Assembly: GCF_044324785.1 (NCBI RefSeq)
Contig: NZ_CP172127.1
Direction: 5' to 3' (one strand)
Source: Escherichia coli
Lineage (GTDB): Bacteria; Pseudomonadota; Gammaproteobacteria; Enterobacterales; Enterobacteriaceae
Length of the DNA stretch: 64,000 bases
Shown: one piece after another, positions 37,214 to 50,156 of the stretch
Position numbering within the stretch: position 1 is the stretch's first letter
Layout: every line of letters starts with the position of its first letter
The notes under the pieces: generated by a model
The model's input: only the letters and a program-made list of their open reading frames with translations
Told to the model about the DNA's origin: nothing
Database searches by the model: none
Program-made: the position numbers and the translations under genes

Positions 37214-37948
37214 TTATGCTGCGACAACAATCCCCTTTTCGGCAAATGTAAAGCGTAGTCGGCGGGCGAATGCCAGTGCGTGTTCTCCATCGCCATGCAG
37301 GCAGACCGTTTGCGCCGTGACCGTTGCCCATTCGCCGTTGATACTTTTGACTCTGCCGTGTTGCACCATCTCCAACGTTTGCGCCAGCGCCTGTTCTTCG
37401 TCTTCAATCAGCGCTCCTGGCTGGCTTCGCGGCACCAGCGAGCCGTCAGCCTGATAACCGCGATCGGCGAACACTTCCTCGCGCGTTGTCAGGCCATATT
37501 GCTTGCCTGCACGAATCAGCTCGCTTCCCGCCAGCCCGACGAGAATCAATGCCGGATCGCAAGCGTATACCGCTCTGGCGATAGCGTCTGCCAGTTGTGC
37601 CTCTTTCGCCGCCTGGTTGTATAACATGCCGTGCGGTTTGACATGACGCATTACGCCGCCTTGCGCACGGGCAATCGCTGCCAGCGCGCCAATTTGATAC
37701 AGCGTCTGGGCGTAAACGGTTTCTGGCGGCAGCTGCATGGCGCTGCGACCAAAATTTTCCCTGTCGGGAAAACTCGGGTGAGCGCCAATCGCGACACCAT
37801 TTTTTATTGCTTCACGCACGCAAGCCTGCATGGTTTGCGCATTGCCTGCATGAAATCCACAAGCAATATTGGCAGAGGAAACCAGCGTTAATAGCTCTGC
37901 GTCGCTGGCGCAGCCTTCGCCCAGATCGGCGTTCAGGTCAATTTTCAT
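37214..37948 (-). CDS. pxpA: 5-Oxoprolinase subunit A (LamB/YcsF family)
   Basis: 244 aa ([20 protein letters not shown]...). Confidence 0.95.
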
Positions 37949-38870
37949 TGTGCAGCCGCCACGCTAATTGTTCGAAATAACGTTGCTGATCTTGCCGTGC
38001 TTTCAGTGCCTCTTCCAGTGAACACTGGACAAAATGAATCGGCTGACCGAGCGGAATTTGCGCCAGATGGTACATATCAGCCTCAATGATACAGGCAATA
38101 CGCGGATAACCACCGGTGGTCTGTGCGTCGTTCATCAATACAATCGGCTGGCCGTTATGCGGTACCTGCACCACACCCGGCAACAAACCGTGAGATAACA
38201 GTTCGCGATCGGTGGTACGTTTTAAAATTTGCCCCTGTAAGCGATAGCCCATTCGGTTACTTTGCGAGCTAAGCTGCCAGGGCGAACGCCAGAATGCATC
38301 CTGTGAGGCGCGATCGAACTCATGATATTCCGGCCCCGGCAAGGCGCGAATGCGGTTGCCCCACAGCAACTGTTTAACGCCCTGCGCTTCCATAAAATCA
38401 CGCTTCGCTTTGCCAATCGGGAGTCGGTCACCATCCTTCAGTAAACGGCCTTCCAGCCCGCCAATCCCCACTTTGAGATCGGTGCTGCATGACCCCATTA
38501 CCGGCGGAACATCAATACCACCCGCGACCGCCAGATAACTGCGCATCCCGTGCTGCGGGCGTTTAAGCGTTAAACGCTGGCCTGCTTTCATCGGCAATCG
38601 CCAGCCGGTCCAGACGGCGTTATCATCCAACCGCGCTTCGCAACCGGCCCCCGTCAGAGCAAACCACCCATCAGTTTCGAACTCAACCGTTAACTGACCG
38701 AGCGTGATCTCCAGCGCGGGGGCATTGGCGTCATTACCCACCAGTAGGTTAGCAATGCGTAACGCGGGCATATCCAGTGCGCCGCAGTGGCTGATACCCG
38801 ACTGGCGAAAACCGTGACGACCGCCATCCTGCACAGTGGTATACATGCCCGCACGAATAATCTTCAGCAT
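37938..38870 (-). CDS. pxpC: 5-Oxoprolinase subunit C
   Basis: 310 aa ORF overlapping pxpA and pxpB. Confidence 0.93.
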
Positions 38871-39520
38871 ACTCCCTCCTTCTGCGGTACAAAGCGCACG
38901 CTGTCTCCCGGACGTAATAAGATGGGTTCGTCACGCGCCGGATCAAACAGGCTGAGTGAGGTATGACCAATCAACTGCCAGCCACCCGGCGTTGCCAGCG
39001 GATAAACACCAGTCTGCGGCCCGCCGATCCCGACAGAACCTGCCGGAACGAGCAAGCGCGGTTCAGCGCGCCGTGGCGTGTGTAGTTGTTCCGGCAAACT
39101 CCCGAGATACGGGAAACCCGGCTGAAAGCCCAAAAACCAGACCACATATTCCACGGAGGAGTGCAGTTCAACGACCTGTTTTTCGCTCAACCCACAATGC
39201 GCCGCGACCACCGCCAAATCCGGTCCGCCTGCGCCACCGTAAACCACCGGAATTTCAATAAAACGAGACTCCGGCTCCAGCGCCTCACTCTCCTCCCACC
39301 AGCGTTGCAAACGCTCTATGGCATCCAGTGCCAGCGACTCAGGATTACGTAAAATCACCGTGATATTGTTCATGCCGGGAATGGCTTCAACCACATTCGG
39401 CATATCCACCAGACGCTGCGCCAGTCGCCAGATCCGTTTCTGGCTAGCCAGCGTCACCGGCGGTTCCAGCTCCAGCACTACCGCCGTTTCACCTATCAGA
39501 TAACAACGCGCTCGTTGCAC
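38864..39520 (-). CDS. pxpB: 5-Oxoprolinase subunit B
   Basis: 218 aa ORF. Confidence 0.93.
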
Positions 39521-39542
39521 TTTCGATCCCTCTGATTATTCG

Positions 39543-40286
39543 TTATGCAGGATTAGGAATATCAATAAAGGTCACATCAAGATCGGTATTTTCATTCAGC
39601 CACTCGCTCAATGCGCGAATACCACCGCGTTCAGTGGCATGGTGACCCGCAGCATAAAAATGCAATCCCTGCTCGCGGGCTGAATGAATGGTCTGTTCTG
39701 AAACTTCGCCAGTAATAAAAGCATCCACGCCAAAACGCGCGGCGCTATCGATAAAACTTTGCCCGCCGCCCGTGCACCAGGCAACGCGCTGGACCACCTC
39801 AGGTCCGGTATCGCCACACCATAACGGCTTACGTCCCAGACGCGCTTCAATCCAGGAGGCTAGTTCCAGTCCCGGCACAGGCATGGTCAGTTCGCCCCAC
39901 GGCACCAACGGCTCAATTTCGCCCATGACCGTGATCCCCAGTAACGCCGCCAGCTGTGCGTTATTGCCCAGCTCAGGATGTGCGTCAAGCGGCAAATGCC
40001 AGCCATACAGGTTGATATCATTTGCCAGCAACGTTTTTAAACGGTTACGCTTCATGCCGCGAATGACCGGAGATTCGCCTTTCCAGAAGTAGCCATGATG
40101 CACAATGACCGCATCCGCGCCCAGACGCACTGCCTCATCGAGCAAAGCCTGGCTGGCAGTGACACCGGTAACAATTTTTTGCACCGTCTCTTTGCCTTCC
40201 ACCTGCAAACCATTCGGCGCGTAATCACTAATCGCCGCGCTGTTCAGTTTTTCGTTAATCAGTTGTTCCAGTTCGGTGTTTTTCAT
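39543..40286 (-). CDS. ybgI: Nif3-family metal-binding protein
   Basis: 247 aa (MKNTELEQLINEKLNSAAISDYAPNGLQVEG...). Confidence 0.95.
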   Translation of the reverse strand: MKNTELEQLINEKLNSAAISDYAPNGLQVEGKETVQKIVTGVTASQALLDEAVRLGADAVIVHHGYFWKGESPVIRGMKRNRLKTLLANDINLYGWHLPLDAHPELGNNAQLAALLGITVMGEIEPLVPWGELTMPVPGLELASWIEARLGRKPLWCGDTGPEVVQRVAWCTGGGQSFIDSAARFGVDAFITGEVSEQTIHSAREQGLHFYAAGHHATERGGIRALSEWLNENTDLDVTFIDIPNPA

Positions 40287-40373
40287 CTTCGCGCCTTCCG
40301 TATTCTGATAGCTACACCGTTAACATAGCGTTACCTCGCCTGTTCGTCGATAGCCAATCTTTTGACATATTAA

Positions 40374-42038
<1,665 letters not shown>

Positions 42039-42053
42039 CAGGCCAGCACCGAT

Positions 42054-42086
42054 GCCTGATAAAACGCTCGCTGCGTTTTATCAGGC
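42054..42086. terminator. REP-like hairpin between convergent dtpD and phr
   Basis: GCCTGATAAAACGC...GCGTTTTATCAGGC perfect inverted repeat overlapping the phr stop. Confidence 0.5.
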
Positions 42087-43499
42087 TCCTTTCCTCGCTT
42101 CTTCGTACGCTGCCAGCGTTCGCAGCCTTGCCTCTTTGTGATCGACTATCGGTTGCGGATAATCCAGCGTCACACCTGCTTTCTCAGCCCACTTCCACGG
42201 CTCATGCACTGCTTTCCCCGGTACATTGCGCAACTCTGGTAGCCACCGGCGGATAAACTCGCCTTCGCGGTCAAATTTCTCGCCCTGGGTTGTCGGGTTA
42301 AAAATACGAAAATACGGCGCTGCATCGGTTCCGGTTGAAGCGGCCCACTGCCAGCCACCGTTATTGGCTGCCAAATCACCATCAATCAGCTGCGACATGA
42401 AATATCGCTCGCCTTCGCGCCAGTCGATCAATAAATCTTTCACCAAAAAACTGGCTGTAATCATCCGTAGCCGGTTATGCATCCAGCCAGTGCTGTTAAG
42501 CTGACGCATGGCAGCATCAACAATCGGGTATCCCGTTTTACCTTCTTGCCAGGCTTTAAAATGGGCGGGATTGCGCTGCCACTGCACACGATCCGTCCAG
42601 ACAATAAACGGACGATGTTTACACAGCGAAGGATAATACGTCATCAAATGGCGGTAGAACTCGCGCCAGATCAACTCATTAAGCCAGACACTACCGGCCC
42701 CATCTTCCAGCGCCTGCGGCTGTTCCGCCAACAGGCGATGCAGACACTGGCGAGGCGATAACCCGCCCGTTGCCAGGCTGGCGGACAAACGGCTGGTGCC
42801 TTCTACCGCAGGGAAATCTCGCTGTTGCTCGTACTCCCCTGCTCCGCTCTGGCAAAACTGGCGTAATTGCGCAATCGCCGCTTTCTCTTCCACCGGGAAA
42901 TGCGCAGTATCGAAAGGCTGACGAGGATAATTCAGCGTAATGGATGGCGCGGGAGCTATCGATCCGCTACTACGTACTTTTGGCGCAGCGACGCACTCCG
43001 GCATCCCTTCTCGCAGCCGTTTCAGCCAGGCGTTTTTAAATGGCGTAAAGACTTTGTACATCTCATGATTGCCAGTCATCACCGCCCCCGGCGGCAGGAT
43101 CACGCTGTCATCAAATCCTTCACACACCACGTTACGCAGCGCCCTCTCAGCCTGCACATCCCGCGCCCGCTCATTCACCTCATACTGATAGTTATAAAAC
43201 AGATGAGTAACGCGGTTTTCCGCGCACACCTGCTTAACTATTTCGACGCTGGCGGCAAAGTCATCCACTTCATGAAACAGCAAAGGAATGCCTTTTTCCG
43301 CCAGCGCGATTTGTAGCCCGTTCAGTTGAGCATTGATAAATTCAGCCTGACGCGGCGACATATTATGCGCCGCCCACTGGCGTGGTGTAGCGATATACAA
43401 CGCCAGCACACGTGCAGACGAATTGCGGCAGGCGGCAGCCAGTGCGAAATTATCGTGCAGACGTAAATCCTGGCGAAACCAGACCAGATGGGTAGTCAT
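42081..43499 (-). CDS. phr: Deoxyribodipyrimidine photolyase
   Basis: 472 aa (MTTHLVWFRQDLRLHDNFALAAA...), photolyase signature. Confidence 0.97.
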   Translation of the reverse strand: MTTHLVWFRQDLRLHDNFALAAACRNSSARVLALYIATPRQWAAHNMSPRQAEFINAQLNGLQIALAEKGIPLLFHEVDDFAASVEIVKQVCAENRVTHLFYNYQYEVNERARDVQAERALRNVVCEGFDDSVILPPGAVMTGNHEMYKVFTPFKNAWLKRLREGMPECVAAPKVRSSGSIAPAPSITLNYPRQPFDTAHFPVEEKAAIAQLRQFCQSGAGEYEQQRDFPAVEGTSRLSASLATGGLSPRQCLHRLLAEQPQALEDGAGSVWLNELIWREFYRHLMTYYPSLCKHRPFIVWTDRVQWQRNPAHFKAWQEGKTGYPIVDAAMRQLNSTGWMHNRLRMITASFLVKDLLIDWREGERYFMSQLIDGDLAANNGGWQWAASTGTDAAPYFRIFNPTTQGEKFDREGEFIRRWLPELRNVPGKAVHEPWKWAEKAGVTLDYPQPIVDHKEARLRTLAAYEEARKGA

Positions 43500-44005
43500 A
43501 AAACTCCTGAATGGCGCAAGTTAATCACACGCGGCCAAAGTTCGAAATAACGCTGCCCTGAAAGCCAGGCGTCAGGATAAAGCGCCATATAGTGTTTGAT
43601 ACGCATCAGCAGCGCAAGAAGCGGTTGCTCGCCTCGGCGATAACTGTCGATAAGCGCCGCCAGCTGCTGGCGTTCTGTGGAATCAATATGCGGGCGAAAA
43701 TAACCCTGAACGTGCATCAAAACGTTGGTGTGGTCACGTCGGTTGGCGGGGTGAGAAAGCAAAACAATTACGCGTTGGCGGTACTGGTTGTAATAGTCAT
43801 CCAGATTTTGCCACTGGTGAATATCAGCCACGAACGGGCCAAGTTTGCGGTATTCCGGCTGGGAATGAGCCAGAAAGACGAGTTTATAGCGGCTGTGATA
43901 ATCGAGAAGCGCCCCGCGCGTTAAGCCATGTTCTTTCAGTCGATGTAACTCATGAAGGGCGAAGATACGGATTAGGGTGCTGTCATCAAATCGTTGCTGA
44001 TTCAT
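43496..44005 (-). CDS. ybgA: DUF1722 protein YbgA
   Basis: 169 aa starting MNQQRFDDSTLIRIF with upstream GGAG; ATGA overlap with phr; the ORF track extends 37 codons upstream. Confidence 0.9.
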   Translation of the reverse strand: MNQQRFDDSTLIRIFALHELHRLKEHGLTRGALLDYHSRYKLVFLAHSQPEYRKLGPFVADIHQWQNLDDYYNQYRQRVIVLLSHPANRRDHTNVLMHVQGYFRPHIDSTERQQLAALIDSYRRGEQPLLALLMRIKHYMALYPDAWLSGQRYFELWPRVINLRHSGVL

Positions 44006-44289
44006 TACTGCTCCTGAGATATTAACAGGAGTAAGTGTAGACGATGGTAAATGAATTTTGTGGGGCAGAGTTTTTGCGGGGAAGTATTTTGTTGGTAAAA
44101 ATATTATCAACTTCATCTGAGCGAGAATTATTCTACTATTTTCCGAGCTGCATTCATTTTTTGTATTTTTTATTTTTAGAAAATAACAGTTCTCAAAGCT
44201 TAATCACCTCACTATTAATTGTATTTCAAACCAATAATCGCACTCCATTTTCTCTTTTTAAAAAATATAAACACTGTTAAAACAAATAT

Positions 44290-44664
44290 TTATTTCGTTA
44301 TCTTAAATGCTATTTCTACATCACTCGTCCTTATAATCAAATTATTCTTATTCATAGCTATTTTTGCAGGTTTAAAATAGCGGCTTTCACCAAAGTCAGC
44401 CATAAAAATTAGACTACAAGTTCTCCCAGCCTTTGCACATGAGAAAAACCACCCATCAACTCTATTTATTCCTGAACCTTTAACACCATAATAAATCAGA
44501 ATTTCTGGGTATTGTTCATCCTTCACGTTTTCATATTTTTGGTATTTAATTGAAAACCAAGAGTCTATACTGCCAACATCTTCAAAAAATATTGGAGCTG
44601 ATGTTTCCGCATGAACATATGCAGAAAATGCTAACAAAATGGCAATACTTAGTTTGGTAAACAT
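44290..44664 (-). CDS. Predicted secreted immunity protein for the orphan Rhs C-terminal toxin
   Basis: AT-rich ORF directly downstream of and overlapping the orphan toxin; N-terminal signal peptide [22 protein letters not shown]; start ambiguous (GTG at 44676 or ATG at 44664). Confidence 0.6.
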
Positions 44665-45452
44665 ATCGTTCCACACTTTTCAGGATAATCTATTGGGGGG
44701 AGGGGATCTTTTCCTCTAAATCTAATTGCACCCACGCCTTGTTTGTCAGACCATTCGCCATTTGCATCCTGACGATACCAGTGATAATCCCCACCCATTC
44801 CTATAAAATTGTGAGGACGAATAAACAATTGAGCTTTATGGTAACCAGATGGACAACTCCCATTATCTAAATCCTTGGCACCATCATTTTTTGACGCTTC
44901 AAAAATACTACTACAAGTGAGTTTAGAAAACTCTTTTCCAGATAATTCTCCAGGTTGTAATCCTCCGCCGCCAAAAATCCTACTCCCAGGATTTCCATAC
45001 CTATTTAGAGCATATGAATAGCAATTATTTACGGCAAGATAATACGCATCTGAATTTAGTTCTCGATTGAATACTGGAGCAGGTTTATCAATTAAGCCCA
45101 GCGGATCAATAGAATAGGTTGGATGTATGGAAGCATATACATACTGATTCCACCCGCCTTCCAGCCCAATCGGATCCTGAGTGATATACCGCCCCTGCAG
45201 CGGGTCATAATAGCGGTGGCGGTTGTAATACAGGCCGGACTCCTCATCATACTGCTGCCCCGGCAGACGGATAAGCTGCTGCAGGTGCTGCGGGTTCTCT
45301 TCATTCAGCAGGTTGCCCCATTCATCATATTCTGCGCACCATTCTGTTGCCCCGTCAGGGCTGATAAGCGTCAGCGGCAGGCCGCGATAGTCGCAGTGGT
45401 AGAGGTGGATTATTCGCAGTGATCTATATGCCAACGTCATCTTATTTTTCAT
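44649..45452 (-). CDS. Orphan Rhs C-terminal fragment: end of Rhs core plus a distinct toxin domain
   Basis: 267 aa; N-terminal 120 aa nearly identical to the end of the rhsC core ([12 protein letters not shown]...[17 protein letters not shown]); C-terminal ~147 aa unique; own ATG with GGAG. Confidence 0.8.
45161..45410 (-). repeat. Rhs core-end repeat, orphan copy (~93% identical to 46481-46730)
   Basis: Direct DNA repeat found by aligning the two stretches; offset exactly 1320 bp. Confidence 0.85.
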
Positions 45453-45504
45453 CTACTCCAACGAGTAGACAAGTTTTTTATTAAACCATTTATACCTTTT
45501 ACGA

Positions 45505-46008
45505 TTAAATTTTCTTATGTAATAGAGGTGAATAATCTTCCCAAAAATCCATACAAGCTTTACTTGCATAAAAGAATCCAGCGTCTGATTCATAAGACAT
45601 AAACTGTGCAATAATAGATAGTTGTATATCTGAAAAATTAAAAACAAAATTCAAAAAATCATCGTGATCCCGATACTCAGGACATAAATATTGTTGAATA
45701 AAATCGGATTCAAAAACCCAAAAATCATTCTTATTAAACAACGAGGCATAAATATACAGAGGGATGTAATAGCAGAATACTTTCTCAGGGAGGAATGTAA
45801 TTCCTAACTCTAAAGCATAAGAGTCATCCTTTATTTTAAAATTGTTGGCTATTTCATTCCATTGTTTCTTTTGGAAAAAATTATATACAATATCCAGTTC
45901 CTCCAGCCCTGTAATATCATTTGAAATATGAGGTAATGGCTGGCATGGGAAATGAATCATAAGTTCATCATAGACTGCACTCTCGTTAGAGAAAATTATT
46001 TTTTTCAT
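45505..46008 (-). CDS. Predicted cytoplasmic immunity protein for the rhsC C-terminal toxin
   Basis: AT-rich 167 aa ORF whose ATG (46006-46008) overlaps the rhsC TGA stop (46005-46007) in an ATGA arrangement; no signal peptide. Confidence 0.65.
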
Positions 46009-49000
46009 TTTATTAAGCCACTGCAATCAGCTGCTGTTTTATATGCTTTATTCTCTTCTTCCATATGGGCCTTATCTCCACCACCAAAGCACTGATTATT
46101 AATCTGCTTTCTGACCGAAGCGCACGCCAAATTTATCTCGTACCGTCTCAATATTTCTTTTCTCAGCATCTGAGGAGCGCAAGCTCTAGACTGGTTACAT
46201 AATCTGTTTTTTTCATTTTGTAAGTCACTCAGGTTCTGGGGACTACAGTTACCACCAGGATTTACACCTGACTTATGTTCATCTGTTAATTTGTCGGCTT
46301 CTGGATTAACTTTACGGCCATATTGATCTCTGCGTTGTTGCCCACTTTGGATAACACCACCTGATGAAAACAAACCGCAACTCATCAGTGCTACAACACC
46401 AAGAATTAACGGATTTAACCCTTGTGGGTCTATCTCTGAGATCGGATTTAACGGATACTGATAAAAATTCCATCCCCCCTTCAGTCCAATCGGATCCTGA
46501 GTGATATACCGCCCCTTCAGCGGGTCATAATAGCGGTGGCGGTTGTAATACAGGCCGGACTCCTCATCATACTGCTGACCCGGCAGGCGGATGAGCTGCT
46601 GCAGCTGGTGCGGGTTCTCTTCATTCAGCAGGTTGCCCCATTCATCGTATTCTGCGCACCATTCTGTTGCCCCTTCCGTGCTGACAAGCGCCAGCGGCAG
46701 GCCGCGATGGTCGCAGTGGTACAGGTGGATTTTTCGCGCCGGCGTGTACACCGGGTCCATCTGGTTTTGTATCTGCTCCACCGTCAGGCCGCACGATGCC
46801 AGCCAGCGGCGGCTTTCCTCACTCACCCGGTCAGCCAGGATTTCACTTTCCAGCCGGTCGAGCATCTGCACCAGCACCGGCGGGAACACCACACTGCCAC
46901 CGTCTTCACCGCCGGACTGCTGAAGCGCATCCGCCAGGCTGCGGCGCTGCGTTTTCGCCAGCTCACCGGTGGCGGTTTCGACCCTGATGAGTGGCGTGAA
47001 GCTCCCCGGCTGATAAACCGTCTGGATGCGGGTTCTGTCGTTCTGTATCGTGGTCAGCCGGTCGCCGTCCCAGCCGTACCAGGTCACTTCCGGTTTCCGT
47101 GACAGCGACATCCAGCCCGTCAGGTCCCGTTCACGCCGCCACACCCGTTTTGCCACCCTGCGGCCCAGCGGGTCGTAAAGATAGCGACTTTCGACCAGCG
47201 GCTCTGCATATTGTGTCCGCGTGTAGTGCACCAGCCGGTGCCGGCTGTCGTAATGGTACTGGTGAGTCCGCTCATCATCCGTGCGGATAACCCCTTCCGG
47301 GATGAGGTCGGTTTTCTCTGTCAGCCTGCCGTGACGGTCATACCGGTAAAGATAGTGCGCGTCACGGGCGATACGGTTATCCGGCCACATGCTGAGGGTG
47401 CTGTCCGGGTGCAGCTCCGGGTCGGGCAGGCGGTTGCCTGCCGGGTCCGTGGCATACGGGATGCGGATATCAAGGTTCGCTGCCGTGGTGTGGACGCCGG
47501 TCAGCCTGCCGGTGTCGCTGTAGCTGTAACTCCGGGTCTGGCGCGGGCTGCTGATGCGGATGAGTTCGCCGTTGTCGTTCCAGGTGTAATCGCGGTCATA
47601 CTGCAGGCTGTTCAGGTGCTGGCTCTGTAACTGCCCGGCAGAGGTATAAGCGGTGGTGAGTTCATAACGGCCGAAGCTGCGCAGCGTTTCCCGGTGCAGG
47701 CGGTCGCGGGTATACTCCACCAGCGGTGTGTCGCCGAGTTTCATGCCTGCCAGCCAGCCGCTGCCGTAAGTCAGCCATTCCACGGCGGGCAGGCTGTCCG
47801 GTATACAGCGGTTCGCCAGCCCCTGCGCGTTGTACGCATGTCTGGTTTCATGCTGCCAGAGCAGTGCTTCCGTCTGCGGGTGATGCACCGTCTGGCGCTC
47901 ACCGGTCAGGCGGCCTTTCTCATCATACCCGTAATGCACCGTCACCCGGTGGCCTTCGCTGAGATGGCTGATGCCTGTCAGCCAGCCGCGTTCGTCATAC
48001 TGCCACTGCTCTGCAGGTTCACCCTTCACGGTACGCTGCGTGATGCGGTCTGCTTCGTCATAGTGCCAGTGGGTGACCAGCCCCTCATCCTCGCTGCGGA
48101 TAAGTTTGCCGGTCAGGTCGTGGTGATAACGCTGTGTACGGCCGTCAAAGCCGGTTTCCTGTATCAGCCGGTCGAGTACATCGTAACGGAAGGTGGTGTG
48201 GCTGCCGTTTTCACTGGTCAGGCGGATGACCCGTCCGGCAGCATCGTATTCCATACTGCGCGTCAGACCGCCCTGCGTGGTACGGATGGCCTTTCCCCAC
48301 GCATCGTACTGTGTCCCGTTTCTGCTGCCGTCCGGGGCAATGACGGCGGTCAGGTCACCGGCGGCGTTGTATTCATACCGCGTTTCATGGCCCTGCATGT
48401 CTTTCACCGCAATTAACTGTCCACGGCTGTCGTATGCGCGGTACTGGCTCAGGCCTTCCTCGCGGTGCACCGCCGTCACCTGACCAAAACGGTCATGGTC
48501 ATAACGGGTTACATAACCGGAACAGTCAGTGACGGTCAGCAACTGACCGTAACGGCTCCATGTCATGGTTTTCCGGCTGCCGGTGGCATCTTCCGTTGCG
48601 CAGGGTAAGTCACTGTGTGGATTATCATAACGGTAGCGGGTGATATCGCCGTTGTGTGCGGTTTCCTGAATCAGACGGCCGGATTCATCATATTCCCGGC
48701 GCAACTCCAGCCCGTCAGTCCCGGTGGCTGACGTTAACTGGTTGTGGTGGTTATAGTAAAACGCCGATGCCCTGCCATCCGGTGTGGTGATGCGCGTGAT
48801 GAGTCCCGTCACCACATCCGGGCTGTACTCAGTCGTCCGGCCTGCGGCATCCGTCTGTGCCTTAAGCCTGCCCACCGCGTCAAACTGACTCTGCGTGACG
48901 CTGCCGTCCGCGTGTTCCTTTTTCACCACCCGCTTCAGCCCGCCTTCGCCCTGCGTGTGCAGGACTTCACGGCGGTCCAGGCTGTCGGTGATGGTGATGT

Positions 49001-50156
49001 GGTCTTTCTCATACTGATACGTGTAGCTTAAGCCTGCCGGGTTTAGCTGTTCTGTCACCCGCCCGTCACTGTCGTAACGGTAACGGATTTCCGGCCGGCC
49101 CGTGTGACGGTGCGCCACCATCCGGCCCCGGTATTTATCATCGTAAGTAAAGCTGCGCACCTGTGTGCCGCTGCGGTCATACACCGCCGCCAGTTCGCCG
49201 CGTGGCGTCCAGCCATAGCGTACCAGCGGCGCGGCTGGCAGGTTGTCCGGATATTCCGGGTCGTGCGTCAGCCACACGGCAGACAGACGGATGCCGTTGT
49301 CCCGGCCATATTCGGTGTAACCCGGCAGGGTATCAGGAAAAGCGGACGGTTCCGCCCCGCCGGAAATGGCCTGCTGCCGGGCCTCTTCTGCCCGCAACGC
49401 CTGCGTGGTCAGTACCAGCCGGAAGTGACGCCCGGCACCATCCGTCACGCCGGTGATTTCGCCGCTGAATTCGCCGCCAGCCTCACGGTGGAACGTCTGT
49501 GTGCGCCCGAAGCGGTCCACCAGCCCGGTCAGTACCCGGTACGGCGGCAGTGGCGCAGGCAGCACCTCATCCGCCTCCGGCACCCGCTCACACCAGCCGA
49601 GTACCCACCACGGCCCCTGCGGACTGTTCGTCGCCAGATAACGATGCGGACTCAGGCGAAGCTCTTCCGGCAGCGCCTGCCAGAGTGCGGCCAGCCGGTG
49701 ACCTTCATCCAGTTTCGCCACGCCGCCGCGCACCAGCCAGAGTGACTCGCTGCGGCTGTAACCGTCCTCACCGGGAAACAGGTGCTCAAAATACAGGCTT
49801 CTGCCGCCGTTATCACTGAGTATCAGTGTGTTATCGCGCAGCTGTAAGCGGATATCCGCAGGCATTTTCCAGCCGGGGCCGAGGCTCCCCACCGGCGCGG
49901 GCGTTTTTGTCCGGTAACTGCTGTAGGTGCGGGAGAGGATGAACGGCAGCGGGCCGGGCAGGGCAAGGTCGGTTTCTCCGGGAAGGACCTTCGCACCGAG
50001 CAGCGGATTGACCGGATGGCCGGACGTCACCCCGCCGGGGCACACCGAACAGGCCACGCCGGTGGGGGCACCAATACGTACCCCGGCTGAACCCTGAACA
50101 ATGCTACCGCCATACTGCGTCATGTCGCCCTGACGCGCCGCCGGTTTTCCGCTCAT
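46005..50156 (-). CDS. rhsC: Rhs family polymorphic toxin (rhsC-like): YD-repeat core plus 136 aa C-terminal toxin domain
   Basis: 1383 aa; N-terminus [29 protein letters not shown]; YD/RHS repeats; core ends at ...DPQGL; GC-rich core versus AT-rich tip; position next to ybfA as for K-12 rhsC. Confidence 0.93.
46481..46730 (-). repeat. Rhs core-end repeat, full-length rhsC copy
   Basis: Partner of 45161-45410. Confidence 0.85.

Follow-up and report, generated by a model that had tools for sequence, protein, structure and literature searches.

A predicted polymorphic-toxin locus in a two-tip state at the rhsC site of Escherichia coli

Displaced tips and the rhsC locus

In the C-terminal displacement model of Rhs evolution a circular tip cassette integrates (Jackson et al. 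2009, PMC2935791), orphan rhs-CT/rhsI modules have been described as such (Poole et al. 2011, PMC3150448), and in Salmonella Typhimurium LT2 recombination of rhs-main with rhs-CT-orphan, which fuses the orphan to the shell, has been seen experimentally (Koskiniemi et al. 2014, PMC3967940). The architecture of displaced tips, their origin by recombination and their role as a reserve of toxin and immunity genes have thus all been published (PMC2935791, PMC3150448, PMC3967940). Here we describe an arrangement of this kind at the rhsC site of Escherichia coli, within a window of 64,000 nucleotides (contig NZ_CP172127.1, in which all positions below are counted unless another sequence is named). 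A full-length rhsC carrying one tip (tip 1, or CT1) and a coupled partner gene (imm1) is followed by a dissociated module that consists of a 325-nt core-end fragment, a second tip (tip 2, or CT2) and a second partner gene (imm2). We consider it likely that the arrangement represents the polymorphic-toxin locus of E. coli rhsC in a state with two tips, with delivery and immunity working by the steps proposed below. The architecture itself adds little, displaced tips having been known since 2009, found functional in 2011 and 2014, and being present in K-12 at this very locus. What the window adds to the displacement model is a mapped 60-bp crossover window and a series of three allelic states; otherwise it is the same in kind.

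The resemblance to the described systems is close in several respects. As in the displacement model and in the dissociated tips reported with it (PMC2935791, PMC3150448), the window has a conserved core-end stretch, a GC peak, and a tip that is attached to a full-length gene elsewhere. The orphan open reading frame (ORF) likewise has the defining features of rhs-CT/rhsI modules, i.e., a core-end fragment without a shell, a partner gene of its own and a tip found on a full-length rhs in other genomes, and its RHS domain is recognized by Pfam (PF03527, 3.3e-12, residues 15-51). In LT2 the core-end repeat spans 522 bp at 95% identity, against 271 bp at 93% in the window; the LT2 locus adjoins the SPI-6 type VI secretion system (T6SS) and its recombination event was observed, whereas the window carries other toxins, has no T6SS nearby, and its event is read from natural alleles (PMC3967940).

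The rhsC element of K-12 (rhsC-ybfB-ybfO-ybfC, followed by H-repeat/ISAs1 remnants) occupies the same site between ybfA and ybgA and shares the layout of the window, and the two cores are 95.9% identical. The preliminary description of this DNA had named a difference from K-12 downstream of rhsC, and this is so for the genes, though not for the layout: the K-12 tips and partner genes are unrelated to those of the window (a tblastn search of the K-12 locus with CT1, CT2 and imm2 gave no match), and, unlike K-12, the window lacks an H-repeat element in the interval from the orphan module to ybgA. Among the K-12 partner proteins (L012, 6777-7103 and 8651-9220), YbfB is strongly hydrophobic throughout and YbfC begins with a signal-peptide-like segment, MKRVLFFLLMIFVSFGVIADC, with a possible lipobox; because of these properties, partner proteins predicted to be non-cytoplasmic recur at the rhsC locus.

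Allelic states and the crossover at the core-end repeat

A comparison of tips across strains, which the preliminary description had put forward as a check, was made against 5,426 complete RefSeq E. coli genomes and revealed three allelic states at the locus. In the single-tip state, seen in strain 1190 and 39 other complete genomes, a full-length rhsC carries tip 2 and is followed by imm2 and then ybgA. The intact two-tip state is that of the window and of two further assemblies (L014 and L016). The truncated two-tip state, present in about 240 complete genomes (e.g., GN02461), combines an rhsC bearing tip 1 with imm1 and the orphan; the latter is interrupted by an ISAs1/ybfD pseudogene at the window equivalent of position 44872, which leaves about 73 of its 147 tip residues, and imm2 has been lost. 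The locus of GN02461 (L001, 3089-4610) also shows a 23-nt tandem duplication at the junction of spacer and orphan.

The intact arrangement was found in none of the 5,426 complete genomes (best coverage of the 6.3-kb query, 88%), and it may be asked whether the duplicated core end and the second tip are an assembly artefact of a multi-copy family. The region does mis-assemble. Three public short-read contigs (L013, L015 and L017) skip window positions 46508-50015, i.e., the multi-copy rhs core, with identical breakpoints at 46507 and 50016, and two of them join the end of tip 1 to a nikR or a selAB-yibF flank, which are the neighbourhoods of rhsB and rhsA in K-12. A real rearrangement between rhsA or rhsB and rhsC in these contigs was considered but is less probable, as all three break at the same points, at the borders of the multi-copy core, which makes repeat collapse most likely. 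For the window, however, two independent chromosome-scale assemblies reproduce the whole arrangement, with the gene order from ybfA to ybgA as in the window (L016 is 99.9% identical over 14.8 kb), and the spacer-to-orphan junction occurs in the approximately 240 truncated complete genomes as well as in a separate contig (GCA_044158945.1) that is 100% identical to window positions 37649-45436. An artefact is hardly credible in the face of these assemblies, and because both of the chromosome-scale ones independently show it, the two-tip arrangement is not one.

The window and strain 1190 differ by exactly one block of 1320 bp, which comprises the 87-nt spacer and core end together with tip 1 and imm1. 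At all 14 of the upstream distinguishing sites the single copy of strain 1190 is of the main type, and at all downstream sites it is of the orphan type, with a single switch inside a 60-bp stretch that is identical in both repeat copies (Table 1). Given this single switch point, one reciprocal crossover in the repeat links the single-tip and two-tip states, either integrating or excising the 1320-bp unit. The earlier proposal of a tip displaced by recombination at the core end is supported in this form, as the orphan tip sits on full-length rhsC in strain 1190 and its 39 companions. Such natural alleles, with a crossover mapped to 60 bp, make the recombination model concrete for E. coli.

As to direction, the single-tip allele could be the derived one, and not an ancestor that received tip 1, if recombination between the main and orphan repeats removed tip 1 with imm1 and joined tip 2 to the shell again. 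The switch pattern is exactly what such a deletion predicts, the event has been seen experimentally in Salmonella (PMC3967940), and in E. coli the orphan-type core-end variants occur only in the orphan position, with a degenerate core remnant upstream. On the other side, a 1320-bp circle bearing tip 1 that integrated in the same 60-bp window (PMC2935791) would leave an identical pattern, and the orphan-type variants would then have come from the incoming unit. Insertion of a circular cassette and deletion that fuses the orphan are mirror images of each other, so that the site pattern alone does not give the direction; we regard a derived single tip as falling only a little short of an even call.

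The core end of the orphan differs from that of the resident gene in ways that bear on this history. Sequences at least 99% identical to the orphan-type core end were found in only 239 complete genomes, always in the orphan position, and its 14 variants were found on no full-length rhs among the complete E. coli genomes. Upstream of the repeat, homology to the core continues in frame for about 60 nt, though weakly (29 of 63 identities, a value reached by 1 of 20,000 shuffles). Since it carries its own variants and this degenerate upstream remnant, the orphan core-end fragment would seem to have a history of its own, separate from that of the resident core. Strain 1190 as a simple ancestor of the window was a candidate that we dropped, since the orphan core end carries its own variants.

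The cassettes are far more alike between strains than the chromosomes around them. Compared with strain 1190, tip 2 shows 100% identity and imm2 99.7%, while tip 1 (99.8%), imm1 (100%) and the spacer (100%) match GN02461. By comparison, phr and ybgA (42081-44116) are 95-97% identical to the closest complete E. coli genomes, flank identity is 95-98% overall, and no complete E. coli genome exceeds 97.4% over the stretch from dtpD to ybgA. Because the cassettes are nearly identical across lineages whose flanks differ by 2-5%, we take them to move horizontally; and since dtpD-ybgA reaches at most 97.4% where the cassettes reach 99.7-100%, the source lineage of the window appears to be poorly represented among complete RefSeq genomes. 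In the same flank, the ybgA frame (43496-44116) is open for 206 codons from an upstream ATG, against 169 aa in the reference annotation, the longer frame probably reflecting merely an in-frame ATG upstream.

The Rhs protein, tip 1 and the proposed mechanism

The rhsC site lies on the minus strand, flanked by ybfA and kdpFABC and, at its other end, by ybgA, phr and dtpD. The preliminary description had given an Rhs protein of 1383 aa in which DPQGL is followed by a tip of 136 aa, a next gene that starts in an ATGA overlap with the rhs stop, and a core-end direct repeat of about 250 bp at about 93% identity. The coordinates agree with the first two (imm1 begins at 46008, the overlap reading AAAATGAAAAAA), and the repeat measures 271 nt at 93% identity, its orphan copy lying inside the 267-aa ORF. 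The second small gene that had been placed downstream of the orphan is also there, as a candidate immunity gene (Table 1). GC content is 62% in the core but lower in the tips, at 39-41% (41% in tip 1), and lower again in the small genes, at 30-33%.

Table 1 Features of the rhsC locus, with positions in the 64,000-nucleotide window
Feature	Position	Strand	Description
Rhs ORF	50156..46005	-	1383 aa; DPQGL = residues 1243-1247; tip after it 136 aa
rhsC core	46416..50156	-	DUF6531 N-terminal domain, YD-repeat shell, Rhs-associated core domain to DPQGL (46416-46430)
Core-end direct repeat, main copy	46467..46737	-	271 nt; crossover window 46518-46577
Tip 1 (CT1)	46005..46415	-	136 aa; hydrophobic variable linker of 22-26 aa, then Ntox16 domain with DKAH motif
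imm1	45505..46008	-	167 aa; candidate cytoplasmic immunity protein for tip 1; ATG overlaps rhs TGA (ATGA)
Spacer	45418..45504	-	87 nt, AT-rich; last ~60 nt a degenerate in-frame core remnant; TAG at 45453-45455
Orphan ORF	45452..44649	-	267 aa; DPLGL = residues 116-120; tip 147 aa
Orphan ORF, 5' part	45093..45452	-	Retained core-end fragment, RHS domain; DPLGL at 45093-45107; 14 variants
Core-end direct repeat, orphan copy	45147..45417	-	271 nt; crossover window 45198-45257
Tip 2 (CT2)	44649..45092	-	147 aa; predicted papain-fold Cys/His hydrolase domain; N23, C24, C80, H104 and R107 invariant
imm2	44290..44664	-	124 aa; candidate for immunity to tip 2, predicted to be exported (periplasmic); 16-nt overlap with orphan stop

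The large protein matches RHS_core over residues 1-1247 (NCBIfam, 2628 bits against a cutoff of 2000), as well as YD_repeat_2x (8.8e-37) and, at residues 1170-1247, Rhs_assc_core in the same collection; Pfam places DUF6531 at residues 46-123 (E=1.9e-18). Judged by its sequence, it is an Rhs/YD-repeat polymorphic toxin with a DPxGL boundary, a variable tip and a coupled partner gene, the toxicity of the tip being predicted.

A domain search of both tips, also put forward in the preliminary description, gave an answer for one of them: tip 1 is an Ntox16 domain (PF15523, Pfam E=1e-12, model positions 2-84 of 85), while tip 2 matched no profile. The Ntox16 motif is defined as [DNE]xxH (PMC3482391), which the DKAH of tip 1 fits, within a predicted alpha-helical domain; the AlphaFold2 model is a four-helix domain (pLDDT 79) in which residues 1-26 are disordered. 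Directly after DPQGL, residues 1-22 of the tip (46350-46415, minus strand) form a hydrophobic stretch with a Kyte-Doolittle value of 2.3, whose sequence is variable and whose hydrophobicity is retained in most relatives, and which is disordered in the AlphaFold model. Placed before the Ntox16 domain, it might interact with membranes or take part in translocation.

The partner of tip 1, imm1, has a partial match to DUF6714 (PF20461, Pfam E=3.9e-5, model positions 65-159 of 161), and a hydropathy scan found no hydrophobic segment in it. The same pairing occurs in Rahnella sikkimica (CP019062.1), where the coding sequence of an Ntox16 tip (63% identity to tip 1) overlaps by 4 nt the gene downstream of it, whose product has a precomputed DUF6714 match and 48% identity to imm1. 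This module resembles the pair of the window in content and coupling, but stands in orphan position behind a different full-length Rhs, whereas in the window the tip is attached. The 2012 survey gave no immunity family for Ntox16 (PMC3482391), and given this, together with the recurrence of the pairing in Rahnella, DUF6714 is a reasonable candidate for one.

For the locus as a whole we propose, by analogy with described Rhs systems, that the shell would enclose the tip and self-cleave at DPxGL, and that the tip would be delivered to neighbouring cells on contact, probably on a T6SS spike, with imm1 protecting the producer in its cytoplasm. The orphan tip would not be delivered as it stands. 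Its partner imm2, once exported to the periplasm, would guard against strains in which a full-length RhsC carries tip 2, where tip 2 would attack a substrate in the cell envelope; and recombination in the repeat would re-attach tip 2 to the shell, thereby re-arming the locus. No T6SS genes were found within the 64-kb window, the PAAR_motif match of the large protein is marginal (Pfam E=0.13, residues 2-20 only), and the literature is uncertain about the spike that carries the RhsA/B/C clade (PMC7216683); for these reasons delivery is the weakest step of the mechanism. As regards expression of the orphan and imm2, a scan of the locus for promoters and terminators gave signals at or below chance. 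The proposal predicts a killing hierarchy among natural strains, since truncated-class strains without imm2 exist alongside 40 strains that deploy tip 2, and the truncated strains should be sensitive to tip 2.

Tip 2, imm2 and the orphan module

We consider tip 2 and imm2 to be of chief interest for further study, as they represent a large family without assigned function, the Ntox16/DUF6714 pairing being less so. Tip 2 gave no match in NCBIfam, Pfam (even at E<=10), PADLOC or PDB sequences, whether searched as a single sequence or as a 40-member profile, and imm2 gave none in NCBIfam, Pfam, PADLOC or PDB sequence searches; one of the 40 tip-2 family members has a weak Pfam match to DUF7689. 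A match to a beta-glucosidase (E=0.017) was dismissed as short and compositional. A word-indexed homologue search recovered close relatives only, for CT2, imm2 and CT1 alike, and it was an exhaustive HMMER search that reached the distant relatives of CT2, with 825 cluster representatives at E<=0.001. These relatives nearly always lie at the C-terminus of carriers of varied length, many of them with RHS/YD repeats.

The structural model of tip 2 is a confident papain-like fold in which Cys24 begins a helix and His104 lies in a strand. Beyond the putative catalytic cysteine, the domain has further conserved cysteines, C60/C80 and C141/C145, and these pairs suggest disulfides formed outside the cytoplasm. 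Among the structural neighbours of the model are Tse1, Tae3 and TseH. The Tae/Tai amidase effectors of the T6SS (Tse1 and Tae3; also TseH) combine a small papain-fold Cys/His enzyme with an exported neutralising protein, as is predicted for tip 2 and imm2, while by sequence profile tip 2 did not fall within NlpC/P60-CHAP (Pfam at E<=10, NCBIfam). We also considered a Cpe1-type C39 papain-like protease (PMC12136450) and rejected it, as CT2 did not show the combination of a C39 (ComA/LahT-like) fold with a cytoplasmic immunity protein.

The N-terminus of imm2 is a typical Sec signal, with 19 residues and then |E, and the hydropathy peak lies there. The analysis covered the genes downstream of distant relatives of tip 2 in five metagenomic loci, i.e., six loci with the window. 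In three of the five (L010, L006 and L004) the partner is a small imm2 homologue whose N-terminus bears an export signal or anchor and which has an invariant GSG motif; in L003 it is a four-helix membrane protein, and in L008 a GSG protein without a signal. Exported partners are thus found in four of the six loci, the window included, and a membrane partner in a fifth. As most of the partners are predicted to be exported or membrane-bound and the cysteine pairs are conserved, tip 2 probably acts outside the cytoplasm, most plausibly in the cell envelope, and peptidoglycan is the leading candidate for its substrate. Tentatively, we would extend this to the whole family, as widespread disulfide-stabilised papain-fold envelope hydrolases that are usually the C-terminal tips of Rhs/YD-repeat and other carriers and are blocked by a co-evolving exported GSG immunity protein, in the manner of a fifth-type analogue of the Tae/Tai pairs. 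The L003 locus (metagenome contig Ga0620986_00559, 1-7977) is also notable for its layout: behind a full-length Rhs with an Imm44 partner comes a series of four or more orphan Rhs fragments whose tips differ (one of the tip-2 family, GH-E, Tox-HDC), each with a small gene downstream.

In the orphan of the window the preliminary description had seen a truncated Rhs C-terminus with its own start codon. The 267-aa ORF is present, but the start is less secure: its ATG is the first after an in-frame TAG inside the degenerate core remnant, the core having CAG at the site of the TAG and an ATA codon at the site of the ATG, and it may be a fortuitous start. A hairpin with a 7-bp stem at 45452-45469, which reads TCTACTC-GTTG-GAGTAGA on the coding strand, spans the GGAG of the orphan ORF together with its first ATG. 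Its stability is barely above that of shuffled sequence (z = -1.9, a weak value), and if formed it would hinder initiation of translation of the orphan ORF. Read on the plus strand, the same hairpin looks like a terminator and is followed by a T-run.

Such features raise the question of whether the orphan module is a decaying relic without current function, whose frames are intact owing to a recent origin. Decay would fit the approximately 240 complete genomes in which the orphan is truncated by ISAs1 and imm2 is lost, and also the in-frame stop upstream of the orphan, the lack of a promoter signal above chance and the hairpin over the candidate ribosome-binding site. However, tip 2 and imm2 of the window are intact and match the copies on the full-length gene at the identities given above, 82 public contigs carry the exact orphan ORF, in a 263-aa form, and 452 carry the exact imm2, and with 40 complete genomes deploying tip 2 on a full-length RhsC, imm2 would be of immediate protective value. 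On these grounds we think a relic unlikely.

A different role would be that of an internally expressed toxin-antitoxin pair that modulates the growth of its producer, as in Salmonella rhs. Internal promoters in the conserved core end of Salmonella drive tips and immunity genes, and the same promoter has been reported upstream of Rhs toxins in E. coli and Shigella (PMC7043789). The orphan retains both a core-end fragment, which suggests that it could supply an internal promoter, and an ATG-initiated ORF. Against this role, imm2 is predicted to be exported and the orphan ORF has no signal peptide, which would place the two in separate compartments, and the disulfides suggested by the cysteine pairs of tip 2 would likewise form outside the cytoplasm; we judge such a pair to be quite improbable here.

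If tip 2 and its family are envelope hydrolases, as tentatively proposed above, then its relatives in molluscs, corals, rotifers and algae would parallel the 'domesticated amidase effectors' of eukaryotes. Matches to the tip-2 model in AFDB50, with a TM of about 0.7 and 21-31% identity, include proteins of molluscs, corals, sea anemones, rotifers, a green alga and an amoeba, and several of these structural relatives are annotated as 'insoluble matrix shell protein 1'. Ancient sharing of a bacterial toxin fold, or its horizontal transfer, may lie behind such eukaryotic relatives.

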